A stretch of DNA of 10,947 nt from a virus (Duplodnaviria; Heunggongvirae; Uroviricota; Caudoviricetes): the IMG/VR virus record IMGVR_UViG_2648501669_000001; one strand, written 5' to 3'. Both the position numbers and the translations under genes were made by a program. The notes under the pieces are model-generated. The model did not search any database, was not told the DNA's origin, and was given only the letters and a program-made list of their open reading frames with translations. Below, piece after piece: positions 1 to 10,947 of the stretch. The number at the start of each line of letters is the position of its first letter. Position 1 is the stretch's first letter.

Positions 1-20
1 TAGTGTGGTAGGTGGTGGGT

Positions 21-159
21 CTGATGTCCGGCGGTGCTTTTGCCGTTACGCACCACCCCGTCAGTAGCTGAACAGGAGGGACAGCTGATAGAAACAGAAG
101 CCACTGGAGCACCTCAAAAACACCATCATACACTAAATCAGTAAGTTGGCAGCATCACC
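21..159 (-). mobile_element. Truncated IS1 copy (terminal inverted repeat plus first 139 bp), inverted, with its outer terminus abutting phage DNA at 160
   Basis: Positions 21-159 are the exact reverse complement of 10611-10749, which begins GGTGATGCTGCCAACTTACTGAT, recognised as the IS1 end. Positions 1-20 do not continue the IS1 sequence. Confidence 0.85.
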
Positions 160-339
160 GAAAGTGCGTTATCTGCAATGACGATAAAGGGTAATTCGTT
201 TACCTACGAGTCAATTGCGGTTTTACAACAACTGAAAAGGGATTACGAAAAACAACTCGTAAAACTCATTCAGCAAGAACGGCGCAAGGCTGGCAATTAC
301 TCACCAATTACACCGATTAAAGTACGCTTAACTCGATAA
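160..339 (+). other. Possible 3' remnant of an upstream gene truncated by the IS1 insertion (perhaps terminase large subunit C-terminus), or a small 53-aa ORF from ATG 178
   Basis: The frame is open from the IS1 junction to TAA at 337-339, ending 9 bp before the portal start. There is no convincing Shine-Dalgarno before ATG 178. It is below the ORF-track length cutoff. No family was recognised. Confidence 0.3.
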
Positions 340-348
340 GGATTTAAC

Positions 349-1872
349 ATGTTTAATTTTTTCAAACGCAAAAAAGATATGCCCGTGAATCCGGTTAAGA
401 AAATCGGTATTCGCCAACACCGCAAATTATTTGTAGATCGCAAGATTGAAGAATTTACCAAAGACTTACATAAACGCTCTTTGGGATTGGTTGAAAGCGA
501 CCGCATTGAAGGAAGTATGGCGCGTAATGTCATCACTGGCAGCATTAACAGCGCGATTAAGGGGTCCGCATCACGTCTATACAATCAAGGCCGTTATCTT
601 GCGTTAAACACTTCTATTGGCTCCCGTTATTGCCAACACGTTATTGATTCCGTGGTAGGTACTGGCTTACAGCCTCGAACCTTCGTTATGAAAGGGGAAA
701 AGCTGGACGCAACCACTAACACCGCTATTGAGAATGCTTTTTGGCGTTGGGCTAGCTCTCAGAAACGATTCTCGCGCATCGGAAAGATTAACTTCCTTGA
801 ATGCTTAAAGTTGATGGAAAAAGAGCGCGTGATGGGTGGTGATGCGTTTCTGGTACTCCATGAAGATGGTAAGGATCTGCAAGTATCCATTTATGGTGCG
901 GATTGTGTTGATTGGTCAGATCAGCGCACCTTAGATAACGGTAATGTCGTTTACGCTGGCATCGAATATGAAGATGAAAAGCCCGTTGCATATTGGTTTA
1001 GGCGTCGTGACCTGTTTACTCAGTCCTTTACTGGCGAACGTGTACGAATCCCGGCGGAAAGAGTGCTGCATTACTTTATCCCTGGTACAGCCGACGCATT
1101 ACGTGGTATTACTGATTTCTTGCTAATAATCAAAGATATAGCTCATCTTGAAGCGTTCCGCGAGACTGTAATAATCGGTAAGCGCGTGCACGCAAGCAGC
1201 ATGGCCTTTATCACAAGCGATAAAGAAAATCAAGATTCATTTGATGTTGGTGAAGATGACACGGAAAACTATCAACCGCCAACAATGATCACTGACTTCG
1301 AACCGGGTACTATCAATATACTGGAACCGGGGCAAGACGTTAAAACGGTACAATCAACTCAAGGCGGCGATGATTTCGAAAAATTCAATGAAGCAATGCT
1401 GACTTCTATTTCTATGGGTCTGTCTAGCTTTAAACAAGCTCTTACAGGAGATACAAGTTCTATTAACTACTCATCAGCAAAATTCGGTCATAATATTGAA
1501 TCCGCTCGCTTCAAGACGCATCAAGATCGCTTAGTTGATACTGTTATTCTTCCATTATTTGAGGCGTTTTTACGTCACGCGGTAATTAACTCAAAAATCA
1601 ATGTTCGCATGACGCAGATCGATTCTATTTTGGATGCAACGACAATTATTAGACCTCGCGTTACGTCTATTGAACCGATCAAAGATATTCAGAGTGAAGT
1701 TCTGTTAATAGAAAGCGGATTGAAGTCTAAAGCTCAGGTCATTATGGAAATGGGTCAAGATCCGTCTCAGGTCTTTAAAGAAATTGAGGCAGAAAAACAC
1801 ATGCTAAATACATGCGTCGTGAGTGAGGGTGAGACTGAAAAAGAAAAATCTCCTGATACTCAAAATGAATAA
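349..1872 (+). CDS. Phage portal protein (lambda gpB-like family)
   Basis: 507-aa ORF with AAGGA Shine-Dalgarno 7 nt upstream. Size and position (first gene of the head module, directly before the protease-capsid gene) fit a portal. The C-terminal region (LLIESGLKSKAQVIMEMGQDPSQVFKEIEAEK) resembles the lambda gpB C-terminus as I recall it. Confidence 0.8.
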   Translation: MFNFFKRKKDMPVNPVKKIGIRQHRKLFVDRKIEEFTKDLHKRSLGLVESDRIEGSMARNVITGSINSAIKGSASRLYNQGRYLALNTSIGSRYCQHVIDSVVGTGLQPRTFVMKGEKLDATTNTAIENAFWRWASSQKRFSRIGKINFLECLKLMEKERVMGGDAFLVLHEDGKDLQVSIYGADCVDWSDQRTLDNGNVVYAGIEYEDEKPVAYWFRRRDLFTQSFTGERVRIPAERVLHYFIPGTADALRGITDFLLIIKDIAHLEAFRETVIIGKRVHASSMAFITSDKENQDSFDVGEDDTENYQPPTMITDFEPGTINILEPGQDVKTVQSTQGGDDFEKFNEAMLTSISMGLSSFKQALTGDTSSINYSSAKFGHNIESARFKTHQDRLVDTVILPLFEAFLRHAVINSKINVRMTQIDSILDATTIIRPRVTSIEPIKDIQSEVLLIESGLKSKAQVIMEMGQDPSQVFKEIEAEKHMLNTCVVSEGETEKEKSPDTQNE

Positions 1873-1914
1873 CCCAACGGGGCGCAATGCCCCCAATAAT
1901 TTTCAAGGTGATCT

Positions 1915-3969
1915 ATGACAACAAAACAATTCCGTCGTAGTGTTGCGGTAGATACCCCTGATTTTATCGAAGAAAAAGACGAACGAATTATTGAATTGGC
2001 TTTCTCAAGCGAGGCTCCTTATACACGTTATTACATGAATCAGGACGGCGAGCAAGTCGAATTAAAAGAGATTCTCGTACACGATGAATCAGCGGTTGAT
2101 CTATCCGTTTTAAACGAGACTAACGCAAGTCTTCTGTTTAATCACAATCTGGATCTTCATATCGGCAAGATTGTTCCTGGCTCCGCTCGTATTGACGAAG
2201 ACCGTGTAGGTCGTTGCCTTGTCCAATTCTCCAAAGTAGGCCAACTGGCTAATGAATGCTTTGAGAAGGTAAAAGAGGGAACACTTTCACAAGTTAGCGT
2301 CGGTTATAACGTTCTTGATGGCAAAGCCGATTTTAACAAAGGGATCTATTATGTTACACGCTGGCAACCTTTCGAATGCAGTCTTGTAACGTGTGCCGCA
2401 GATCCATTTAATGCGGGTGTTGGACGCTCTCTAAATACAGACAACGAAATGATTGTTTTGGAGGGTGAACAAGTGGAAGACGAAATTAAAGATACTCCGG
2501 TCGAAGAAATTAAACCGGAAGATGAAGAAAAACGTTCCGAAGAAGAGAAAGAGGAACAAGAAAATGAAGAAATTGATTCCGATTCTGGAAATAGTGCTGA
2601 CAGTGGCGAAGATGTGGAAGAACCGCAAGAAGTAACGCCAGAAGAAAAAGAAGAACGTTCCGAAGATGAACCGGAAGAAACAGAAGAACTAAATAAAGAT
2701 ACAGACGAGAACGACGAAACGGAAAATACATCCGAACCAGTCGAAGAAGAAAAGATTGAAGACGAAGAAAAACCGTTTGAACGTTCTCGCGAAGATACCG
2801 CCGAAATTCGTGCTATCGGAAAACATCTAAATATCTCCGAAGACGTGATTGAAGCTGCAATTAAAGATAGTGCCGTGACTATTGAAAATTTTAAAGAAAA
2901 AGCACGCGCACTAAATACTACCGAATCTAAAACTTTTGTTAAAGGAAAAATTACCATGACCGATACCATTAAAACTCTGGAATCCCGTTTCGATCTTAAT
3001 AAAGCTGTACGTGCAATCGCAGAGGGTAAAGCCCTGACTGGCGCAGAAGCTGAATATTCTCAGGAAGAAGCACGTAAAGCCGCAGCGCGTGGTCGTGCGC
3101 AGCGTTCTAACTCCGTATTCATTCCGGCGTCCGCTCTGCGTGCTAGCCAGAACATGGAATCTCTGAAACCAGTAGTTGGTGAAGAAATCCGCCATGATTG
3201 CTTCGTTGATATGATCATGGAACGTTCTATTCTGGGTAAATTGGGTGTGCGTACCATTAACGCAACTGGTCCTGTTTCTCTGCCGTCTCTGACTTCCAGC
3301 AATCTGGAAAACTTCGGTTTTGTTGCAGAAGGTCAATCCGCTGGTGAAGGTACTATTAAGTTTGCAGCGCAGCCGATGACTCTCAAGACTTTTAACGGAA
3401 TTGTTCCTGTAACGCGTCAGGCTGCAATCACACTGCCCAATATTGGCGCTATCGTTGGTGAGCACATGCTGAAACACAGTGCTATCGCTCTGGAAAAAGC
3501 GATTCTGTCCAATGCTGCTAACACTAACGCTCGTGATGGTCTGACTAAGATCCTGACCGACGCTGGCAAAGTTAAACAGATTGATTGGACCTATGCCGAG
3601 TTCCTGAAACTGGTAGCTGAACTGACCGACAAAGGTTATAACGAAGCGGATCTGGCATTTGCTACCCGTGGTGTTGTTAAAGCTGAACTGGCAGCGCAAC
3701 TCAAAGCAGCTAATGTTCCGGGCTTCCTGGTAGAAGGCGATAAACTGGTTAACCGTCCGATCTATGGCTCTGGTGTAGTTGCTCAGGATACCATGCTGTT
3801 TGGTGACTTTAGCTCCCTTGTTGTTGCAGACTTCGGATCGCTGGAACTGGATTGCGACGATACCACAGGTCGCGCGGCTGGCAACCTGTACTTCCGTGTA
3901 TGGGCTGATCTGGATTGGGCTGTTATGGACCATAGCGCACTGACCGTAGTTCAGAAAAAAGTTGACTGA
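1915..3969 (+). CDS. Prohead protease - acidic scaffold/delta linker - HK97-fold major capsid protein fusion
   Basis: 684-aa ORF with AAGGTGA Shine-Dalgarno. The N-terminal ~170 aa look like an HK97-type prohead protease. Residues ~183-300 are a hyper-acidic low-complexity linker (EEKRSEEEKEEQENEE...). The C-terminal ~290 aa are HK97-fold capsid-like (e.g. GDFSSLVVADFGSLELD). It sits immediately after the portal. Confidence 0.8.
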   Translation: MTTKQFRRSVAVDTPDFIEEKDERIIELAFSSEAPYTRYYMNQDGEQVELKEILVHDESAVDLSVLNETNASLLFNHNLDLHIGKIVPGSARIDEDRVGRCLVQFSKVGQLANECFEKVKEGTLSQVSVGYNVLDGKADFNKGIYYVTRWQPFECSLVTCAADPFNAGVGRSLNTDNEMIVLEGEQVEDEIKDTPVEEIKPEDEEKRSEEEKEEQENEEIDSDSGNSADSGEDVEEPQEVTPEEKEERSEDEPEETEELNKDTDENDETENTSEPVEEEKIEDEEKPFERSREDTAEIRAIGKHLNISEDVIEAAIKDSAVTIENFKEKARALNTTESKTFVKGKITMTDTIKTLESRFDLNKAVRAIAEGKALTGAEAEYSQEEARKAAARGRAQRSNSVFIPASALRASQNMESLKPVVGEEIRHDCFVDMIMERSILGKLGVRTINATGPVSLPSLTSSNLENFGFVAEGQSAGEGTIKFAAQPMTLKTFNGIVPVTRQAAITLPNIGAIVGEHMLKHSAIALEKAILSNAANTNARDGLTKILTDAGKVKQIDWTYAEFLKLVAELTDKGYNEADLAFATRGVVKAELAAQLKAANVPGFLVEGDKLVNRPIYGSGVVAQDTMLFGDFSSLVVADFGSLELDCDDTTGRAAGNLYFRVWADLDWAVMDHSALTVVQKKVD

Positions 3970-4098
3970 ACTCCTGTAGAACCTTCTGAACCTTCCCCCG
4001 ATTCGGGGGAAGAAAATCTGATTCCTAAACCGGAAGAAGAATCCCAGACGGTTACGGCGAAAGCCACAGCAAAACGAGGCCGCAAGCCTAAAGAATGA
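3970..4098 (+). other. In-frame open extension after the capsid UGA stop (42 codons ending ...VTAKATAKRGRKPKE); candidate readthrough product
   Basis: Same frame as 1915-3969, with no stop codon until TGA at 4096-4098. The stop context is UGA-A. It contains the 36-bp core repeat 4051-4086 that is identical to 9994-10029. Confidence 0.4.
4051..4086 (+). repeat. 36-bp exact direct repeat, copy 1 (gttacggcgaaagccacagcaaaacgaggccgcaag); encodes VTAKATAKRGRK
   Basis: Identical to 9994-10029. The flanking sequence is also similar at DNA and peptide level. Confidence 0.9.
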
Positions 4099-4103
4099 TA
4101 ATT

Positions 4104-4130
4104 AGCCCTGCCTAGTGCGGGGCTTTTTTG
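4104..4130 (+). terminator. Rho-independent terminator downstream of the capsid gene and its extension
   Basis: GC-rich hairpin agccctgc / CTAGT loop / gcggggct followed by TTTTTT. Confidence 0.6.
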
Positions 4131-4159
4131 TATGTAAATACTCCATAAAGGGGGTAACT

Positions 4160-4450
4160 ATGTTCAAATTATCAGAATCACAATTATCAAGAATGTTTAA
4201 GAGTGCTCCTGTATTTTCGGTGGAAGGTGGTAAATCAATTCGTGCTTATCATGAAATTACTACTACCGACGAATCGGGGGTAATGACAGAAACCGAATTT
4301 CTATTCTGTCGTGAGGGAGACTTAAATCAGGGTGATATTGTCATTGTAGAAAACCAGCGTTTCAAAGTTCAATACGTTAAGCGCAATGGTGATAATACCA
4401 CTGATTGCTTTATTACTCTGGCAGGGGGTACACATGCTCGCTACCGTTAA
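4160..4450 (+). CDS. Small head-tail connector / head completion protein (putative)
   Basis: 97-aa ORF from the internal ATG at 4160, preceded by AAAGGGGG Shine-Dalgarno. The longer ORF-track start at 4115 lies inside the upstream terminator. Size and position (between capsid and tail terminator) fit a connector. No strong motif was recognised. Confidence 0.5.
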   Translation: MFKLSESQLSRMFKSAPVFSVEGGKSIRAYHEITTTDESGVMTETEFLFCREGDLNQGDIVIVENQRFKVQYVKRNGDNTTDCFITLAGGTHARYR

Positions 4451-4856
4451 TAATATGCCTAGACTGAAAATCAAACGCGCCTTGCAAGATATTATCGAAC
4501 AAGATTTAGGTCTGGCTTTAAACGTAGAACAAACTCAGCAAGGTTTTAGTGATGACGTGGTTTGTTGGATTACTGGCATGAATGAGACTTACACTAGGGT
4601 CCGTGGTGGTAATGCAATGCAAGCTGAATGCGTTATCGAAATGCAATTATATTCTCAGATTCATGAAACAAAAATCCATGAGGGTATTTGCCAGATAATC
4701 CAGATTCAGCCGGATAACCCACGTTTTAAAGATTTGGGCTTCTCTATTTCAGATATCACTCCAGTAGCCTCTAATACCGATTATGACGATGATTCTAGTG
4801 ATGGGGGTATCGTTGGGACACTTAGCCTTAAATTTTCTTATCTAGCGCGTTTTTAA
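4434..4856 (+). CDS. Tail terminator protein, lambda gpU-like (putative)
   Basis: 140-aa ORF from ATG 4434 with AGGGGG Shine-Dalgarno, overlapping the previous gene by 17 bp. VCWITGMNETYT...ECVIEMQLY and the acidic C-terminal TDYDDDSSDGG resemble lambda gpU (VAVYLTGAEYT...ELHIEVFL...YDYRRDDDAG) as I recall it. Confidence 0.55.
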   Translation: MLATVNNMPRLKIKRALQDIIEQDLGLALNVEQTQQGFSDDVVCWITGMNETYTRVRGGNAMQAECVIEMQLYSQIHETKIHEGICQIIQIQPDNPRFKDLGFSISDITPVASNTDYDDDSSDGGIVGTLSLKFSYLARF

Positions 4857-4865
4857 GGGGTAATA

Positions 4866-5699
4866 ATGAATATTACACAAGATAACTTAGATATTTTCAC
4901 TGGATCACATGTTGAAGTGTCGATCTCTAACCAGATAGACAATCAGGTCGACTTTTTCGATCCTAGCTTTAGTTCTATGGAGAACATCGCAGCATTCCCT
5001 ACGCTAACCGAATCCACAGAGATAGAAACTCTGGAAGAGTACGATCAGGACGCTACGGGGAAACTTGCTGGTTATCGTAGACTGGAACCGACAACACTCA
5101 CATTAAACCGTGTTCTTGACGATGAACATCAAGCAATGTTGATGAAAGCGGTAGAGGATAAAACACCTTTACGCTTCCGTATGTTCTATGTTGTGAACTC
5201 TGGCTATAGTGCTGCTAACACTGGTTACTATGTCATCTATGACGCTTATGTCACTAGTCACAAAACCCGTGGCGCAGATAACAAAGCTGTAACACTGGAA
5301 TTTAAACTTGAACCAGATGGCGGGATTTTGGCAAGGGGTATTGCTACCGAAGGCCGGATCTTACGTCAGGGTGATTTTGGTATCGGTGCTGGTGTAAATC
5401 CTTTCAGTGGTCCTATTGATAGTGAATCTCTGACAGGAAACCGTTTCGTAACTTACAAGGGAACTGCTAGCACTAACCCTTATGGTGCTGATACATCGTT
5501 AATTCATCTTCAAGCTAATGAGCATGGCGCATGGCAATTAACCTGTAATACTTCTGGCGCACCGCGTTTACGCGTCCGAAATATTCAGGAAAACGGTAAA
5601 TCTGAATGGATTAAAGTCTATTCTACAAACGAGAAACCGACACCTAGCGAAATTGGCGCAGTGGCTAAGACTGACCGGATCGATTTCGGCGAATACTAA
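4866..5699 (+). CDS. Major tail (tube) protein with a C-terminal fibre-like domain
   Basis: 277-aa ORF with AAGGGG Shine-Dalgarno, placed after the gpU-like gene as in the lambda Z-U-V order. The N-terminal ~135 aa are paralogous to ORF 9445-9915. The C-terminal ~70 aa are homologous to an internal segment of the tail fibre (shared KPTP-x-EIGA motif). Confidence 0.6.
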   Translation: MNITQDNLDIFTGSHVEVSISNQIDNQVDFFDPSFSSMENIAAFPTLTESTEIETLEEYDQDATGKLAGYRRLEPTTLTLNRVLDDEHQAMLMKAVEDKTPLRFRMFYVVNSGYSAANTGYYVIYDAYVTSHKTRGADNKAVTLEFKLEPDGGILARGIATEGRILRQGDFGIGAGVNPFSGPIDSESLTGNRFVTYKGTASTNPYGADTSLIHLQANEHGAWQLTCNTSGAPRLRVRNIQENGKSEWIKVYSTNEKPTPSEIGAVAKTDRIDFGEY

Positions 5700-5729
5700 G
5701 GATTCTCCTACCTAAATAAAACATGACGC

Positions 5730-5763
5730 GGGGAGGTTAACGCCTCCCTTATTCCTGTTTTAT
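5730..5763 (+). terminator. Putative intrinsic terminator after the major tail gene
   Basis: Hairpin GGGGAGG / ttaacg / CCTCCC followed by a T-rich tract (ttattcctgtttta). The T-run is interrupted. Confidence 0.45.
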
Positions 5764-5779
5764 AGTGAGGTGATTCTAG

Positions 5780-8700
5780 ATGCAATCAATCCAATTTAAA
5801 CGCACACAAACGGCTGGTAAAAAACCAACGCCGGAACAATTATCACAGGGTGAATTGGCTATTAACCTTGCTGATCACGTTCTGTATACCAAAGATAAAA
5901 ATAACGCAGTAGTTCAAATCTCTGTTTCTCCAGAAAAACACGCTGAACTTAACACGAAAGTAGACCAGAATAAAACTAGCACTGACCGTGTTATTGCTTC
6001 CAACAAACAAGAGGCCGCTAATAATCTGGCTAGTGTTAAAGCTGAACTGAATCAGACTATTACCGCTAAAGACACCGCAACCAATAAGCGCATTGATGCT
6101 ACCAACACCACTGTTAGTAACTTAACCCAGACAGTTACGGCAAATAAAACCGATGCCGACACTAAGATCAATAACCTTACGGGGACCGTATCTGCGAATA
6201 AGACCGCAATTGAAAGAACCGTTGCCGCAAACAAATCTGATGCAGATAGCAAACATGCAGCTTTAACGAAAACGGTCACTGACAATAACACCGCGATTAA
6301 CAACAAGGTTAATACCACTAACACCAACGTTAGCAACTTAACTAAAACTGTTACTGCAAATAAAACCGATGCAGATAACAAAATTTCTAGCTTAACTAGC
6401 ACGGTTGCAGCTAACAAAACAGCGATTGAAAAGGTCGTTTCCGACAACAAGAAAGATGCTGATACTAAAATCAGTAACCTTACTGGCACTGTGAATAGTA
6501 ACCATACCGCTATTAACAACAAGGTAGACCAGAACAAATCATCGACCGATGCCGCAATTACAGCCGCCAACAAGCGAATTGATGGTATTGAAGGTAGTGC
6601 TAACGCAGCATATATCAAGAAGAACACAAAGACCTATCACGGCGCGTATTTGTATAGCAAGACTGGTAACTATCTGGAAGATTCAACCGCGAGAGATCTT
6701 AATTACTTCGGTGCATTCCGTACCAATGGTCAAGATGGACTCATGGATCTAACCCTTAACGTTCCTCACTCTTCCGGTAAAGCGCATGGTCGAGGATTTA
6801 CTTTCCGTTATGCGTCTGGCGGATCTCGTGTTGAAACCTATGGTTTTGATGCTCAGGGACAAAAAGCGTTTAGCTATAAAATGTATCACGAAGGGGATAA
6901 ACCGACTCCTGCTGAAATTGGCGCATATACCAAAGGCGAAATTGATAAGATGTTTATTAAAAATGTCACAATGTCTGTTCCTTCTGGTAGTGAATCCCGT
7001 GCTTATTTCAAGATTGCTACGGCTACGATCCCACAAAATGGTCGTATGGTAATGCTTCGTATCTTCGGTGGTAATGGTTATAACGTTAACTCCTATGATC
7101 AGGTTGATTTCCTTGAAATTGTTATCCGTTCCGGTAACAATAACCCGAAAGGCGTTAGTATTGCTGCTTATCGTCGAAACTCTTTGAACGTTCATCAAGT
7201 ATTTGCGGTTAATACTTCCGGTGATAACTACGACATTTACGTTAACTACGGTCGTTATACTGATAACGTTATTGTCGAATATGGTAAGACTAGCGGTGTT
7301 TCACTGACTGTTCATGACACCCCAGCTATGACTAACGTTAAGCCGTCTACTGGTGTTACAGATGGACGTGTTATTACAATGTTCAACACCGAAAACAAGG
7401 CCGGAACGTTGATGTTTGATAATAACGGACAGGGTACATATGATATTGTCAGTTTGAATAACGATTCAGGTACTGGTAAAAAATATCTTCGTAAATTCCG
7501 TAGTAAAGCCGCAGAAACAATCTGGCATGAAACTGTTCAAGGTAACGTTTATCGTTTAGCGACTGGTACTACCGATTCTAGCGAAGTTCTACGAATCACT
7601 GGTCGCACCATGTTTACTGGTAAAGGTGTATTTGATGCCGGACAAAACGTTCTTAGATTAGAGCGTCCTAGTAATCAATCAAACTATATTGAATGGCAAG
7701 ACCGCCGCAATGGTGCTAATGCTCGTCAAGGTTGGATTGGTTTTGGTAGTGCTGAAACAAATAACTTCCAATGGTATAGCGATCAGGGGAAAAACTCATT
7801 TCAGCTAGAAGCTAACGGTCAATGCTCTATTACCACTGGTGCAACTAAAATTGTATATACAAACGGCGAGTATGTAGCTGCTAACTCAAATGCATTCCGT
7901 ATGATTTACGGCAATTATGGTGCATTTTGGCGCAATGACTCCGCAAAAGTTTATCTTCTGTCAACGGCTGAAAACGATAAGTTTGGTGGTTGGAATACTT
8001 ATCGACCATTCATTTATGATCTGACTTCCGGTAACGTTCAATTAGGCGGTGATGGTAACGAAGATGCATTAACGTTAGAACGTGCAAGCCGTGCCGCTCG
8101 TTTTAGTAATGACGTTTACATTAAGAAAGGTTTTTTGACTTTCGACGCTGGGCGTTCTGGATCGCGTGATTATATTCGATTTAATCATTGGGGCGATAGC
8201 AACAACGCCCGTGATAACGTTTTATACCTCGAAGACAGCAAAGGTCGCCATTTCAGCACCGAACGTAATATGGCTACAGGTGGACTAAAGGCATATTTCT
8301 TAGGTGATCTTGAAGTTGCTGGTCAAATGAGATGGGGTAAGAATACCGGACAATCTAGCTTCAATATTCGTGCATGGGGTAATGATACTCGTAAACAAGT
8401 ATTAGAATGCGCAGATGAAAGCGGCTGGCATTTCTACACACAGCGTGCTGGCGGTCCTGGTACTACCGCAATCGAGTTTAGCGTAAACGGTAAAATTAAC
8501 GCTCCCCAACTGTCTATTAGTCAGGATGCAACCATTCCTAAGTTTAATAGCGGTTTTGGTGTTGGTGTTGCTAACGGATTGGGTGGAAATTCTATTGTTT
8601 TAGGCGATAGTGATACTGGATTTAAACAAAACGGTGATGGTGTCCTTGATACCTACGCTAATAACGTTAATGTTGTTCGTCACACATCTGGCGGCATTAC

Positions 8701-9388
8701 CTTTAACCGTCGTGTTGTTGTTGCTAACAAAAATGGTTTAGGTTATTCCGATATCTCTGATGTAACTCGTGACCGTGCTCCATTCTTGGTTAACATGGAT
8801 AGTATTAAGGGGTCTGGTGCATATTTCCCTATTATCGCTGGCTATAGTAACTTAGGTGATGTTGGTTATCGTCAGTCCTTCGAGTTTGGTTGGACGGGTA
8901 GCGGTTCGACTCACGGTTGGCGTACTGGTATTATCCGTATGCGTGGCGATAACGCCAACGGGCAGCAAGCACGCTGGGAATTTACTATGGATGGTGACTT
9001 TACCGCAGGTCGTAACGGTAGCTTTAACGATGTTTACATTCGCTCTGACTCCCGTTTGAAGATTAACAAGGAAGAATTACAGGACGGCGCATTAGAGAAA
9101 GTAAACTCCCTGAAAGTCTACACCTACGATAAAGTTAAATCTCTTTCAGATGACACAGTGATTAAACGCGAAGTAGGTATTATTGCTCAGGATCTGGAAG
9201 AAGTGTTGCCGGAAGCAGTAGGTATTCAATCCACCGAAGATCCAGAACAACCGGAAGCAATTAAGACTATTTCTAACTCTGCTGTTAATGCCTTGATTAT
9301 TAAAGCTATTCAGGAAATGGACGCCAAATATCAAGCTAAGATTGAAGCATTGACTAAAGAGATTGCCGAACTCAAAGCAACTAAATAA
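5780..9388 (+). CDS. Tail fibre protein with a repetitive shaft and a C-terminal intramolecular chaperone (peptidase S74-like) domain
   Basis: 1202-aa ORF with GAGGTGA Shine-Dalgarno. The N-terminus has a tail-fibre anchor-like motif (KKPTPEQLSQGELAINL). Tandem T/N/K-rich repeats form the shaft. GLGGNSIVLGDSDTGFKQNGDGVLD and ADESGWHFYTQR resemble the conserved distal region of P2 gpH-type fibres as I recall them. The C-terminus has an SDSRLK (S-D-x-R-x-K) autoprocessing motif followed by a coiled-coil-like tail. Confidence 0.85.
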   Translation: MQSIQFKRTQTAGKKPTPEQLSQGELAINLADHVLYTKDKNNAVVQISVSPEKHAELNTKVDQNKTSTDRVIASNKQEAANNLASVKAELNQTITAKDTATNKRIDATNTTVSNLTQTVTANKTDADTKINNLTGTVSANKTAIERTVAANKSDADSKHAALTKTVTDNNTAINNKVNTTNTNVSNLTKTVTANKTDADNKISSLTSTVAANKTAIEKVVSDNKKDADTKISNLTGTVNSNHTAINNKVDQNKSSTDAAITAANKRIDGIEGSANAAYIKKNTKTYHGAYLYSKTGNYLEDSTARDLNYFGAFRTNGQDGLMDLTLNVPHSSGKAHGRGFTFRYASGGSRVETYGFDAQGQKAFSYKMYHEGDKPTPAEIGAYTKGEIDKMFIKNVTMSVPSGSESRAYFKIATATIPQNGRMVMLRIFGGNGYNVNSYDQVDFLEIVIRSGNNNPKGVSIAAYRRNSLNVHQVFAVNTSGDNYDIYVNYGRYTDNVIVEYGKTSGVSLTVHDTPAMTNVKPSTGVTDGRVITMFNTENKAGTLMFDNNGQGTYDIVSLNNDSGTGKKYLRKFRSKAAETIWHETVQGNVYRLATGTTDSSEVLRITGRTMFTGKGVFDAGQNVLRLERPSNQSNYIEWQDRRNGANARQGWIGFGSAETNNFQWYSDQGKNSFQLEANGQCSITTGATKIVYTNGEYVAANSNAFRMIYGNYGAFWRNDSAKVYLLSTAENDKFGGWNTYRPFIYDLTSGNVQLGGDGNEDALTLERASRAARFSNDVYIKKGFLTFDAGRSGSRDYIRFNHWGDSNNARDNVLYLEDSKGRHFSTERNMATGGLKAYFLGDLEVAGQMRWGKNTGQSSFNIRAWGNDTRKQVLECADESGWHFYTQRAGGPGTTAIEFSVNGKINAPQLSISQDATIPKFNSGFGVGVANGLGGNSIVLGDSDTGFKQNGDGVLDTYANNVNVVRHTSGGITFNRRVVVANKNGLGYSDISDVTRDRAPFLVNMDSIKGSGAYFPIIAGYSNLGDVGYRQSFEFGWTGSGSTHGWRTGIIRMRGDNANGQQARWEFTMDGDFTAGRNGSFNDVYIRSDSRLKINKEELQDGALEKVNSLKVYTYDKVKSLSDDTVIKREVGIIAQDLEEVLPEAVGIQSTEDPEQPEAIKTISNSAVNALIIKAIQEMDAKYQAKIEALTKEIAELKATK
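6101..6530 (+). repeat. Tandem in-frame coding repeat in the fibre shaft (two ~72-aa units built from ~12-aa sub-repeats)
   Basis: Unit A (TNTTVSNLTQTVTANKTDADTKINNLTGTVSANKTAIER...TAINNKV) and unit B (TTNTNVSNLTKTVTANKTDADNKISSLTSTVAANKTAIEK...TAINNKV). The antisense ORF 6052-6627 is a shadow of this repeat. Confidence 0.8.
9044..9388 (+). other. Predicted C-terminal intramolecular chaperone domain of the fibre, released by autoproteolysis at Ser ~1089
   Basis: SDSRLK at 9044-9061 matches the S-D-x-R-x-K Ser/Lys dyad pattern of tail-spike and fibre chaperone domains (endosialidase, T5 pb1) as I recall it. The domain is ~113 aa, a typical size. Confidence 0.55.
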
Positions 9389-9395
9389 TAAAAGT

Positions 9396-9414
9396 CGGGG
9401 GACTAGTTCCCCCG
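9396..9414 (+). terminator. Perfect 7-bp GC hairpin after the fibre gene (terminator or RNA processing/stability element)
   Basis: cggggga / CTAGT loop / tcccccg, 8 nt after the TAATAA stop. It is followed by an A/T-rich tract but no clean T-run. Confidence 0.4.
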
Positions 9415-9444
9415 TAATAACAATTTTAATTAAGGGGTAATTCT

Positions 9445-9915
9445 ATGTCTCAATTTAATGATATTTTTACTGGTGGTCTGGTAAGTCTGTTCTATCACGC
9501 TGATACCACTAACACCGCTCTCGATCACTCCGGTTACGAAGAAATTAAAGAGTGTGCTGGTTTTCCTGAAACTGGTATCGAGCGCGGTACTGTAGAAGTT
9601 AAATCCTTCTCTTCTCAGTATAACCGTAAGCTGGTAGGGAAACTGAACGTTCCTGATCTGACTCTGACCGTTAACTACATCCCAGGCGATGCGGTGCACG
9701 AGAAGCTCATTAAAGCTGCCGAAGACGGTACTCGAATTCAGATTAAGATTGAATACTATGTTGATGCAGCAAAACAGACTGGTATTCGCACCGCTTTCAA
9801 CGGCTTTATTTCTAAAGTTGCTATGAACGGTGGCGATGAAGAAGTTGTAACCAAAGAGTTTACCTTCGCGGTGGACGGAAAGCCGATCAAACAGGAAATC
9901 TTCACTGCCGGATGA
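9445..9915 (+). CDS. Tail tube protein paralog (tube domain only)
   Basis: 156-aa ORF with AAGGGG Shine-Dalgarno. It is homologous to the N-terminal domain of ORF 4866-5699 (MSQFNDIFTG vs DNLDIFTG; GKLNVPDLTLTVNYIPGDAVHEKLIKAAEDGT vs GYRRLEPTTLTLNRVLDDEHQAMLMKAVEDKT). Confidence 0.6.
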   Translation: MSQFNDIFTGGLVSLFYHADTTNTALDHSGYEEIKECAGFPETGIERGTVEVKSFSSQYNRKLVGKLNVPDLTLTVNYIPGDAVHEKLIKAAEDGTRIQIKIEYYVDAAKQTGIRTAFNGFISKVAMNGGDEEVVTKEFTFAVDGKPIKQEIFTAG

Positions 9916-10041
9916 ACTAACGAAGAACTTCCTTTAATAGAACCGGAACCACTACCGGAACATGAAGCGGTGGGGATTCCAGAAGTAGAAGAAGTTACGG
10001 CGAAAGCCACAGCAAAACGAGGCCGCAAGGCTAAGAATTAA
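9916..10041 (+). other. In-frame open extension after the tube-paralog UGA stop (41 codons ending ...VTAKATAKRGRKAKN); candidate readthrough product
   Basis: Same frame as 9445-9915, with no stop until TAA at 10039-10041. The stop context is UGA-A, identical to the capsid case. It contains the 36-bp repeat 9994-10029. The reading frame here is taken from the ORF track. Confidence 0.4.
9994..10029 (+). repeat. 36-bp exact direct repeat, copy 2
   Basis: Identical to 4051-4086. Confidence 0.9.
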
Positions 10042-10045
10042 TTTT

Positions 10046-10075
10046 AAGCCCTGCCTTAATGGTGGGGCTTTTTTA
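10046..10075 (+). terminator. Rho-independent terminator downstream of the tube paralog and its extension
   Basis: Hairpin aagccctgcc / ttaat / ggtggggctt followed by TTTTTT. It is homologous in position and sequence to the terminator at 4104-4130. Confidence 0.55.
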
Positions 10076-10089
10076 TTGGAGTAATCAAA

Positions 10090-10596
10090 ATGGCAAATGT
10101 CGTTAATAAGCCCGGCTGGGTCGGATCATCTGCTGTATCGGTGACGGGTAAGCGATGGATGAAAGAAGCATTAACAGCTTTAAAAGTTCCGGCTCCGCGT
10201 AATATGTCGGCAATGGCTGGTCGTGGTATGGATACGGTTGTAGCTACTGCATCGTGGTCTACTTCATTGGGTAATAACTGGGGTGTAACTGCTTCAAACT
10301 ATCCTGTTTCCGGTATGCAAAGCAAAGGATCTATGGAGAACCCCGAAAACGTGGGCGTAGGCCGTCTAATTGGCGTTATCGTTGGTCAATTCAATGGCGG
10401 TACTCCTACTATGGCTGTATATCTCCAGAACGGTAGAGCGGGGAATATAACCGTTAATTTGGGTGGTGCTGCTGTCACTGTTCCTTATAACAGTATGCAA
10501 AGTGGTTTTCATTACTACTGGTTAAGCAATCCTCCGGCAGCTTTCCTCAATAACATTAAGAAGACTGGCACTAAGCAGACTTTGAAAATCTCTTAA
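10090..10596 (+). CDS. Hypothetical protein (168 aa), G/S/T/N/W/Y-rich, possibly a structural or receptor-binding accessory
   Basis: ORF with GGAG Shine-Dalgarno and a TAA stop 14 bp before the IS1 terminus. No family was recognised. Confidence 0.55.
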   Translation: MANVVNKPGWVGSSAVSVTGKRWMKEALTALKVPAPRNMSAMAGRGMDTVVATASWSTSLGNNWGVTASNYPVSGMQSKGSMENPENVGVGRLIGVIVGQFNGGTPTMAVYLQNGRAGNITVNLGGAAVTVPYNSMQSGFHYYWLSNPPAAFLNNIKKTGTKQTLKIS

Positions 10597-10610
10597 ATTC
10601 TAAATAAACA

Positions 10611-10850
10611 GGTGATGCTGCCAACTTACTGATTTAGTGTATGATGGTGTTTTTGAGGTGCTCCAGTGGCTTCTGTTTCTATCAGCTGTCCCTCCTGTTC
10701 AGCTACTGACGGGGTGGTGCGTAACGGCAAAAGCACCGCCGGACATCAGCGCTATCTCTGCTCTCACTGCCGTAAAACATGGCAACTGCAGTTCACTTAC
10801 ACCGCTTCTCAACCCGGTACGCACCAGAAAATCATTGATATGGCCATGAC
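10611..10850 (+). mobile_element. Truncated IS1 copy (terminal inverted repeat through the 5' part of insA)
   Basis: Matches the canonical IS1 sequence from base 1 (GGTGATGCTGCCAACTTACTGAT) for ~239 bp as recalled. Mismatches begin at ~10850 and similarity is lost by ~10865. Confidence 0.9.
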
Positions 10851-10884
10851 TGGAGTTGGAAGCCTGCATCTTATACACATCTGA
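10666..10884 (+). pseudogene. insA: Truncated/hybrid insA: first ~61 aa identical to IS1 InsA, then an unrelated 11-aa tail
   Basis: [61 protein letters not shown] matches the InsA N-terminus including the CPSC...CSHC zinc-finger. The C-terminal [11 protein letters not shown] diverges from the InsA helix-turn-helix region. Confidence 0.7.
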
Positions 10885-10947
10885 CGCTCACGACGATCGA
10901 TCTAGAACAAACAACACAGACTCACACCCGCAATCAACAGAAATACA

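Follow-up and report, generated by a model that had tools for sequence, protein, structure and literature searches.

What is the origin of a block of phage structural genes that lies between two insertion sequence ends forming a perfect inverted repeat? The window, i.e. the whole stretch of 10,947 nt analysed here, corresponds in full length to contig JRQF01000147.1 of GCA_000768125.1, the draft genome of the pig E. coli 77-30253-3, which was assembled into 790 contigs from MiSeq 2x300 reads of a Nextera XT library (PMC4276829). The original prediction saw in it a decayed prophage captured or rearranged by truncated IS1 copies, possibly an inversion or deletion product. We consider it very likely that the window represents two IS1 insertions in a native prophage and that the contig is broken inside the IS1 repeats.

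The repeat itself was described correctly: positions 21-159 and 10611-10749 are 100% complementary over 139 nt, and a perfect repeat of this length in 11 kb would be beyond chance. Both arms correspond to bases 1-139 of an annotated IS1A (NZ_CP138416.1), counted from its IRL terminus GGTGATGCTGCC, and the IS1 terminal inverted repeat (IRL GGTGATGCTGCCAACTTACTGAT...) is present on both sides. As had been predicted, the IS1 termini abut phage DNA, with the junctions at 159/160 and 10610/10611, and two oppositely oriented copies bracket a segment of 10,451 bp with the same end (IRL) inward and the bodies outward:

21-159, minus strand: left IS1, bases 139 to 1, with IRL at 159 and the body running leftwards off the contig; 139/139 identical to IS1A
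10611-10849, plus strand: right IS1, bases 1-239, with IRL at 10611 and the body running rightwards; 239/239 identical to IS1A

Judged from the sequence, the inverted repeat of 139 nt is simply the IRL end that both oppositely oriented IS1 copies have in common. The insA ORF of the right copy (10666-10849, starting near IS1 base 56) encodes an InsA N-terminus that matches NF050000, the IS1/IS1595 zinc-binding domain, with 41.5 bits (cut-off 28); its score against the IS1 transposase model NF033558 was 59 bits, below the cut-off of 100, and covered profile positions 1-57 of 199. For the partial insA ORF of the left copy, the Pfam domain Zn_ribbon_InsA is on record.

The segment between the two copies carries the following genes:

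349-1872, plus strand: portal protein of the lambda family (PF05136, E 6e-58)
1915-3969, plus strand: prohead protease - major capsid fusion of 684 aa with a UGA stop (PF04586 Peptidase_S78, PF05065 Phage_capsid)
4160-5699, plus strand: three ORFs of 96, 140 and 277 aa
5780-9388, plus strand: tail fibre of 1202 aa (PF21446, PF13884), part of which resembles the T4-type distal long tail fibre
9445-9915, plus strand: tail tube protein of 156 aa with a UGA stop (PF16460, PHROG 158)
10090-10596, plus strand: gp38-like tail-fibre adhesin (PF21721 Gp38_N, PHROG 1121)

The region of the 96-aa ORF matched a head-tail attachment family weakly and under its cut-off, and the N-terminal half of the 277-aa protein is tail-tube-like. 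From about 6508 to 8333, the tail fibre gene and gp37 of RB49-group phages are 74-86% identical at the nucleotide level. In five assemblies (L003, L005, L006, L007, L009), the prophage is uninterrupted: a 165-aa gene precedes the portal gene and tail genes follow gp38. The interior of the window differs from these prophages at only 2-4 of 10,451 positions (99.96-99.98% identity), every ORF is intact and no inactivating mutations are present. Therefore, the bracketed DNA is not decayed, contrary to what had been proposed. Strain 39EVA (NZ_CP138416.1) has an uninterrupted relative of the prophage.

On the left side, IS1 indeed cuts off the gene upstream of the portal. This is the 165-aa gene, which all uninterrupted prophages have at full length after the terminase and before the portal, and which is split here at codons 107-109:

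160-339, plus strand: 3' remnant of the head-tail joining gene, codons 107-165 (PHROG 5774 'head-tail joining', E 2.8e-9)
160-168, plus strand: target-site duplication of 9 bp, inner copy, GAAAGTGCG; on contigs L024 and L025 these 9 bp stand before IRR

IS1 usually duplicates 9 bp of its target, occasionally 8 bp. The uninterrupted reference has a single copy of GAAAGTGCG. Another contig of the same assembly, JRQF01000003.1, contains the prophage DNA immediately upstream, followed by the duplicate GAAAGTGCG and the IRR end of IS1, and the sequence across this junction is ...CCAATGAT GAAAGTGCG GGTAATGACTCC... on contig L024, which belongs to this assembly, and on contig L025. To locate the reciprocal left junction, we predicted the fusion protein it should encode and sought it by exact sequence in protein records. 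The predicted 135-aa fusion (109 phage codons including the 9-bp duplication, plus read-through into IS1 IRR) had an exact match in the database, and the variants expected for a 7-, 8-, 10- or 11-bp duplication or for the other IS1 orientation were absent from it. Other assemblies break at the same codon, leaving partial proteins of 105-108 aa; in one of them, contig L026 ends 4 nt into the duplicate. Since the reciprocal junction and the 9-bp duplication are found in the same assembly, we conclude that the left IS1 is, as far as the sequence can tell, a simple insertion splitting the head-tail joining gene. An independent insertion with its own duplication and a prophage that continues beyond it is thus what was found for the left copy, and for this copy only. 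The suggestion that the segment was captured or is a deletion product is contradicted on this side, where upstream prophage DNA is joined to IS1 IRR.

The right IS1 begins, as had been noted, 14 nt past the stop of the ORF at 10090-10596. The insertion is intergenic, between the gp38-like adhesin gene and the next tail gene, which starts about 30 nt further on:

10602-10610, plus strand: presumed target site AAATAAACA, followed by TATCGAATT in the reference and by GGTGATGCTGCC in the window

We infer that AAATAAACA is the duplicated target and that the right IS1 is probably a simple insertion as well. The outer junction expected in this case is the IS1 IRR joined to AAATAAACATATCGAATT, i.e. 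GTTGGAGTCATTACC-AAATAAACA-TATCGAATT. This reciprocal junction (IS1 IRR + AAATAAACA + TATCGAATT) gave 0 matches in species-representative genomes and JGI metagenomes, and it is crossed by no ORF; therefore, the right insertion is characterised from one side only. Target-site duplications in the wider context, which had been proposed as a check, were thus obtained as a 9-bp repeat for the left copy, and the second copy on the right was not retrieved. In comparison with IS1A-type simple insertions in chromosomes and prophages of E. coli, nothing is unusual: the same 239-nt terminus, the InsA zinc-finger ORF and, for the left copy, the 9-bp duplication are present, the right copy likewise lies in an AT-rich target, and the outer parts are missing here as the contig ends.

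According to the proposed course of events, a siphovirus-type prophage of about 37 kb in E. coli 77-30253-3 would have received at least three insertion sequences. One IS1 would have entered the head-tail joining gene that separates terminase and portal, the other, in opposite orientation, the intergenic space past the gp38-like adhesin gene, and ISKpn26 the terminase gene. Both IS1 copies are presumably full length, 768 bp with insB' and IRR, and the contig would then consist of the unique 10,451 bp plus the reach of the reads into IS1, ending in low-quality tails and adapter read-through.

Alternatively, the 10.45-kb segment could have been flipped with respect to the remaining prophage, either in one step, when the first IS1 copy transposed replicatively within the molecule to the second site, or later through homologous recombination between the two inverted 768-bp copies. 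According to the established transposition model, inversion by replicative transposition leaves inverted IS1 copies with the same end inward, and the observed layout is exactly the expected one. The four junction sequences, and with them both 9-bp duplications, should come out alike for inversion and for two independent insertions, and therefore the observed junctions do not tell one from the other. However, no positive evidence points to an inversion, and independent insertion is the simpler explanation where other IS elements have also struck this prophage; we regard an inversion as unlikely. The IS1 pair might also make the 10.45-kb block an invertible or transposable 12-kb cassette, but the only argument for this is the architecture, and we consider it very doubtful. 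If true, the cassette could flip relative to the late operon, or carry the T4-type receptor-binding genes (gp37-like and gp38-like) to another replicon.

It is highly improbable that IS1-segment-IS1 is a composite transposon that captured phage head and fibre genes and now resides outside the original prophage. Composite transposons with direct (Tn9) and inverted (Tn1681) IS1 copies are known, and two inverted copies around about 10 kb of unique sequence resemble Tn1681. Unlike Tn9 and Tn1681, the unit lies in its native prophage context and bears no sign of having moved as a unit: in the same assembly, the outer end of the left IS1 joins the sequence lying ahead of the segment where the prophage is uninterrupted, and the 9-bp duplication brackets that one IS1 and not the unit as a whole. 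Furthermore, neither IS1 junction occurred in any of 5,426 complete E. coli genomes, and within IMG/VR only the clonal contig L011 had the junctions. On the left side, this explanation is already largely refuted.

The IS1 copies had been described as truncated inside the window, at base 139 on the left and at about base 240 on the right, and identity to IS1 does stop at these points. If real, the truncations would be remnants of IS1-mediated deletions of neighbouring prophage DNA. However, the sequence beyond them is not genomic DNA but noisy IS1 in register, followed on the right by Nextera adapter:

1-20, minus strand: noisy copy of IS1 bases 140-159, read tail, with 10/20 in-register matches
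10850-10947, plus strand: contig-end artefact consisting of noisy IS1, Nextera adapter and low-quality tail

All mismatches of positions 1-20 to IS1 bases 140-159 are G/T on the plus strand, which is consistent with an error-laden read tail, a match of 10/20 being weak by itself. The left edge encodes a partial InsA of 34 aa which includes this noisy tail and has the record WP_348270303.1 ('IS1 family transposase, partial') for one NCBI contig, JRQF01000147.1; for the 72-aa InsA ORF with the artefactual tail and for the 53-aa connector remnant, no record was found. On the right, positions 10850-10864 continue IS1 to about base 254 with 3 errors in 15 nt, 10864-10896 match the Nextera read-2 adapter CTGTCTCTTATACACATCTGACGCTGCCGACGA at 29/33 positions, and A/C-rich junk lies beyond; as judged by eye, the sibling contig L024 ends in the same adapter artefact. 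A comparison of both ends with other sequences, as had been suggested, identified IS1 noise and adapter but no genomic IS1 breakpoint.

A second, cleaner assembly of the same DNA, contig L011 (IMGVR_UViG_2740892423_000001), corresponds to positions 72-10702 of the window with 0 mismatches. It lacks positions 1-20 and stops elsewhere, 88 nt (left) and 92 nt (right) into IS1; sibling contigs of its IMG taxon 2740892423 were not found in IMG/VR. In addition, the upstream prophage DNA that a deletion would have removed is present in the same genome, on the other end of an IS1. Genuine truncation is therefore a very remote alternative, and the number 139 is apparently just the point where good sequence stops on the shorter side: the window ends within IS1, a multicopy repeat beyond which the assembler could not proceed. 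Least probable of all is an assembly chimera in which one IS1 junction was read at both contig ends, since, although these ends do hold other artefacts, the phage sequence next to IS1 is not the same at the two junctions (GAAAGTGCG... and ...AAATAAACA), and both junctions are mismatch-free in the independently processed assembly L011.

The activity of insertion sequences on this prophage is not limited to IS1. In the same genome ISKpn26 interrupts the terminase gene, so this prophage copy is probably dead, and the copy in strain HCP5S3_I4 has an IS2 in the capsid gene. Since its connector and terminase genes are both disrupted and a polar IS1 precedes the tail genes, the copy studied here is probably defective. 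The original prediction was thus right that insertion sequences are at work, as the copy is being broken up by them, and wrong in regarding the bracketed DNA as decayed. IS-riddled defective prophages are known in E. coli and Shigella, and like them this prophage has several IS elements (IS1 twice, ISKpn26) in essential morphogenesis genes. Unlike them, its decay is very recent, the intervening 10.45 kb being still free of inactivating mutations.

IS1 insertions into prophages are commonplace, and the finding is an ordinary one of a kind already known. Biologically it is minor: in a single pig E. coli lineage, one prophage copy is losing its function. It is nevertheless a caution for genome scans: it is routine for short-read contigs to break off in multicopy IS elements, and adapter left untrimmed and tails of low quality here mimic a 'truncated IS' and a 'bracketed segment'. 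The prediction of a fusion protein at the reciprocal junction, combined with an exact-sequence look-up, could resolve similar cases elsewhere.

Unrelated to IS1, the capsid and tail-tube genes are the only ones in the segment that end in UGA. In both, the stop is TGA followed by ACT, and behind each UGA there is a conserved in-frame extension of 28-44 codons that closes with a common basic tail. In addition to a hairpin at 3992-4012, downstream of the capsid UGA, hairpins lie directly 3' of the extensions in the window:

3970-4095, plus strand: candidate readthrough extension of 42 codons behind the capsid UGA, with the basic tail VTAKATAKRGRKPKE at its end
4104-4130, plus strand: intrinsic-terminator-like hairpin with T-run, directly 3' of the capsid extension
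9916-10038, plus strand: candidate readthrough extension of 41 codons behind the tail-tube UGA, with VTAKATAKRGRKAKN at its end
10047-10075, plus strand: intrinsic-terminator-like hairpin with T-run, directly 3' of the tube extension

UGA readthrough is known from the Q-beta coat protein. The substitutions in the extensions showed no excess at third codon positions, so this classic coding test lends translation no support and conservation of the frame is the remaining basis; we nevertheless lean towards programmed UGA readthrough of the capsid and tail-tube proteins being real. A 198-aa protein, P0010, was considered as a natural sense-codon variant ('tail tube + extension') and rejected: the codon in its DNA is TGA, which must have been read as Trp in the gene call. 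A literature search found no description of readthrough in these capsid and tail-tube genes, which is no proof of novelty. Recoding is known to extend the major capsid and tail proteins of Lactobacillus phage A2 and the Listeria phages PSA, A118 and A500 (PMC5009743). As in these phages, capsid and tail tube both have a conserved C-terminal extension that is reachable only by recoding. In contrast to their frameshifts, the candidate extension is in frame behind the UGA, which would imply readthrough, and it is made up of a short Pro/Glu linker and a basic tail rather than an Ig-like domain. If this is confirmed, the capsid and tail extensions known to depend on frameshifting would be joined by a case that depends on readthrough.

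A repeat search of the window showed that positions 21-159 and 10611-10749 are complementary over 139 nt at 100%, and both arms are identical to bases 1-139 of the IS1A annotated in E. coli 39EVA, counted from its IRL terminus GGTGATGCTGCC. Since both arms begin at IRL, both IS1 copies have this end directed inward and their bodies outward. The left terminus adjoins phage DNA (GAAAGTGCGTTATC...) at 159/160, and at the other end ...TTCTAAATAAACA leads into the right terminus at 10610/10611, 14 nt past the stop of the ORF 10090-10596. The perfect inverted repeat of inward-facing IS1 ends, the contact of both outer termini with phage DNA and the spacing after the last ORF had all been part of the original prediction.

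The same prediction had taken the IS1 copies to be truncated at about base 139 (left) and 240 (right), which did not hold. The right copy agrees with IS1 without error over 239 nt and then stays in register to approximately IS1 base 254 with 3 errors in 15 nt; positions 10864-10896 agree with the Nextera read-2 adapter at 29 of 33 sites, and A/C-rich junk makes up the rest. Of the leftmost 20 nt, 10 are identical to IS1 bases 140-159, and all mismatches are G or T on the plus strand. The terminal stretches are thus noisy IS1 at 1-20, and noisy IS1, adapter and junk from 10850 onward. A 34-aa partial InsA with the noisy tail is on record for a single NCBI contig of 10,947 nt, JRQF01000147.1 of GCA_000768125.1, and therefore the window is the whole contig. 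This assembly belongs to E. coli 77-30253-3, a strain from a pig fed with copper (Nextera XT library, MiSeq 2x300, 790 contigs; PMC4276829). A second, cleaner assembly, IMGVR_UViG_2740892423_000001, corresponds to window 72-10702 with 0 mismatches and ends 88 and 92 nt into IS1. Genomes that have IS1 contain a median of 10 matching places for it, and the contig ends inside IS1 because it is a multicopy repeat. The "truncations" are contig-end artefacts, and the figure of 139 has no biological meaning.

For a simple insertion of the left IS1, we predicted that the first 109 codons of the 165-aa connector gene, including a 9-bp duplicate, are read on into the IRR end of IS1 to give a 135-aa protein. 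This exact sequence was found in the protein database, and exact look-up in the same database gave no match when the duplicate was set to 7, 8, 10 or 11 bp or IS1 was placed in the other orientation. Two contigs encode the protein: JRQF01000003.1, which belongs to the window's own assembly, and JRGD01000181.1. Each of them reads ...CCAATGAT (gene), GAAAGTGCG (duplicate) and GGTAATGACTCCAAC... (IRR end). As the duplicate is also present before the IRR end, it flanks the single left IS1, which is a simple insertion. The gene upstream of the portal is indeed cut, as had been claimed: the 165-aa gene, which matches a PHROG annotated 'head-tail joining', is broken after 109 codons (duplicate included). 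JRQF01000003.1, which by eye likewise ends in noisy Nextera adapter, carries native upstream prophage DNA of the same genome. Several other assemblies have contigs that end within the connector gene, leaving partial proteins of 105-108 aa, and one such contig, with an intact terminase, stops 4 nt into the duplicate; therefore, a small lineage appears to have this insertion in common. Neither IS1 junction was present in any of the 5,426 complete E. coli genomes searched.

For the right IS1, the inner junction alone was observed. Its presumed target, AAATAAACA, is AT-rich and intergenic, about 30 nt before the ATG of the next gene. Of the target duplications that were to be looked for, the 9-bp one was seen on both sides of the left copy; on the right, a scan of two DNA collections found neither a second copy nor the predicted reciprocal junction, which no ORF spans. 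By analogy with the left copy, the right IS1 is quite probably a second simple insertion.

A less likely possibility is that the 10.45-kb segment was inverted between the two sites by replicative transposition, or by later recombination between the inverted copies. Working through the replicative transposition model, we found that neither the four junction sequences nor the duplications would differ between inversion and a pair of independent insertions, and therefore short-read contigs do not tell a flipped segment from a collinear one. Of the original suggestions, capture (taken here as capture in a composite transposon) and deletion are contradicted on the left side, where the duplicate flanks one IS1 and native upstream DNA is present in the same genome. 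The IS1 bracket amounts to two ordinary IS1 insertions together with artefacts of assembly, which is already known biology.

Many E. coli carry a ~37-kb prophage with which the 10,451-bp interior is collinear; index entries for the exact tail-fibre protein exist for 99 blocks of the collection. The interior contains:
lambda-family portal
prohead-protease/major-capsid fusion
three small ORFs
1202-aa tail fibre with a T4 gp37-like stretch
tail tube protein
gp38-like adhesin
None of these ORFs is disrupted, so the interior is not the decayed prophage that had been proposed; compared with uninterrupted copies from five assemblies, it has only 2-4 differences. In these copies, the portal comes after the terminase and the 165-aa gene, while gp38 is followed by chaperone-like genes, the tape measure and tail-tip genes.

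In addition, the end of an IS5-like ISKpn26 adjoins the terminase gene at about codon 47 on both sibling contigs (JRQF01000003.1, 1-15; JRGD01000181.1, 1-89), so the prophage has at least three IS elements. IS1 is strongly polar. With a split connector gene, a broken terminase and IS1 ahead of the tail-assembly genes, this copy very probably can no longer form virions. Its damage would be recent, because the intervening genes are unmutated. Elsewhere in the family, the HCP5S3_I4 copy has two IS2 elements, one within the capsid gene and the other further downstream. Family members have a large serine-type recombinase at one end, have no cultured phage relative and occupy different sites (hicB in one strain, a cytosine permease gene in another; NZ_CM149869.1 and NZ_CP138416.1).

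The DNA of the distal tail fibre (6508-9160) is 74-86% identical to gp37 of RB49-group T4-like myophages, and the gp38-like adhesin gene (10090-10596) lies downstream of it, which makes this a T4-type receptor-binding module in a temperate lambda/T5-like siphovirus-type prophage. The N-terminal half of a 277-aa protein (4866-5699) and a whole 156-aa protein (9445-9915) both match PHROG 158 'major tail protein'; the position of the fibre gene between these tube-like genes points to insertion of fibre, tube and gp38 together as a module. Where the protease domain of the 684-aa fusion protein is joined to its capsid domain, imperfect GAA/GAAG-rich direct repeats at 2450-2780 (families D3, D4, D6, D7 and D11) code for an acidic linker rich in Glu and Lys, which may be a scaffold-like region.

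Seven of the nine window genes stop at TAA; the capsid and tail-tube genes alone stop at TGA, in both cases followed by ACT and an open extension:
3967-4098 (including stops), plus strand, capsid extension, 42 open in-frame codons after TGA
9913-10041 (including stops), plus strand, tail-tube extension, 41 open in-frame codons after TGA
4104-4130, intrinsic-terminator-like hairpin after the capsid extension
10047-10075, intrinsic-terminator-like hairpin after the tail-tube extension
Both extensions have a Pro/Glu-rich stretch and then a shared basic, AT-hook-like tail, VTAKATAKRGRK(P/A)K, which is the 63-nt direct repeat D2 of the window. Salmonella homologues, in contrast, have a TAA stop and a terminator ~25 nt later, without an extension. 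Among relatives, TGA with an extension of at least 25 codons is kept at 45 of 47 tail-tube loci (15 distinct nucleotide versions) and at 21 of 22 capsid loci (8 versions), always as TGA-A, and even after capsids whose C-terminus is only ~41% identical. The nine length variants (108, 117 or 123 nt for the tail tube; 84, 99, 105, 126, 129 or 132 nt for the capsid) are all multiples of 3. Frame 0 has no stop in any version, and frames +1 and +2 have stops in every version. No third-position substitution bias was detected across the versions, so this test lends translation no support.

Judged from these sequences, the extensions are rather likely to be translated, and programmed UGA readthrough is a candidate mechanism that would give C-terminally extended minor capsid and tail-tube forms. 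Phages A2, PSA, A118 and A500 extend both their capsid and tail proteins, but by frameshifting (PMC5009743); in-frame UGA readthrough, if true, would be a new variant of this theme. No cultured phage carries this tail-tube protein (best match 45% identical).

A 198-aa protein (P0010) was rejected as a sense-codon fusion: the DNA has TGA, which the gene call read as Trp. Its source is the ENA metagenome contig k141_243218, and such entries can pass for sense-codon variants. The only capsid locus of the 22 without the TGA-extension arrangement, in NZ_CP122923.1, has a changed frame just before the stop, so that UGA is lost and the extension is out of frame. The C-terminal translation QKKLTELL points to what is probably a 1-nt change in an A-run; this could reflect an error in sequencing the homopolymer or else a genuine loss. 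Inside the capsid extension, from 23 nt after the UGA, lies a 9-bp G+C-rich hairpin (3992-4012; CTTCCCCCG-ATT-CGGGGGAAG). The 93-nt region with this hairpin folds better than shuffles (z = -3.05), and the hairpin could be a recoding stimulator, or an RNA processing or pause site.
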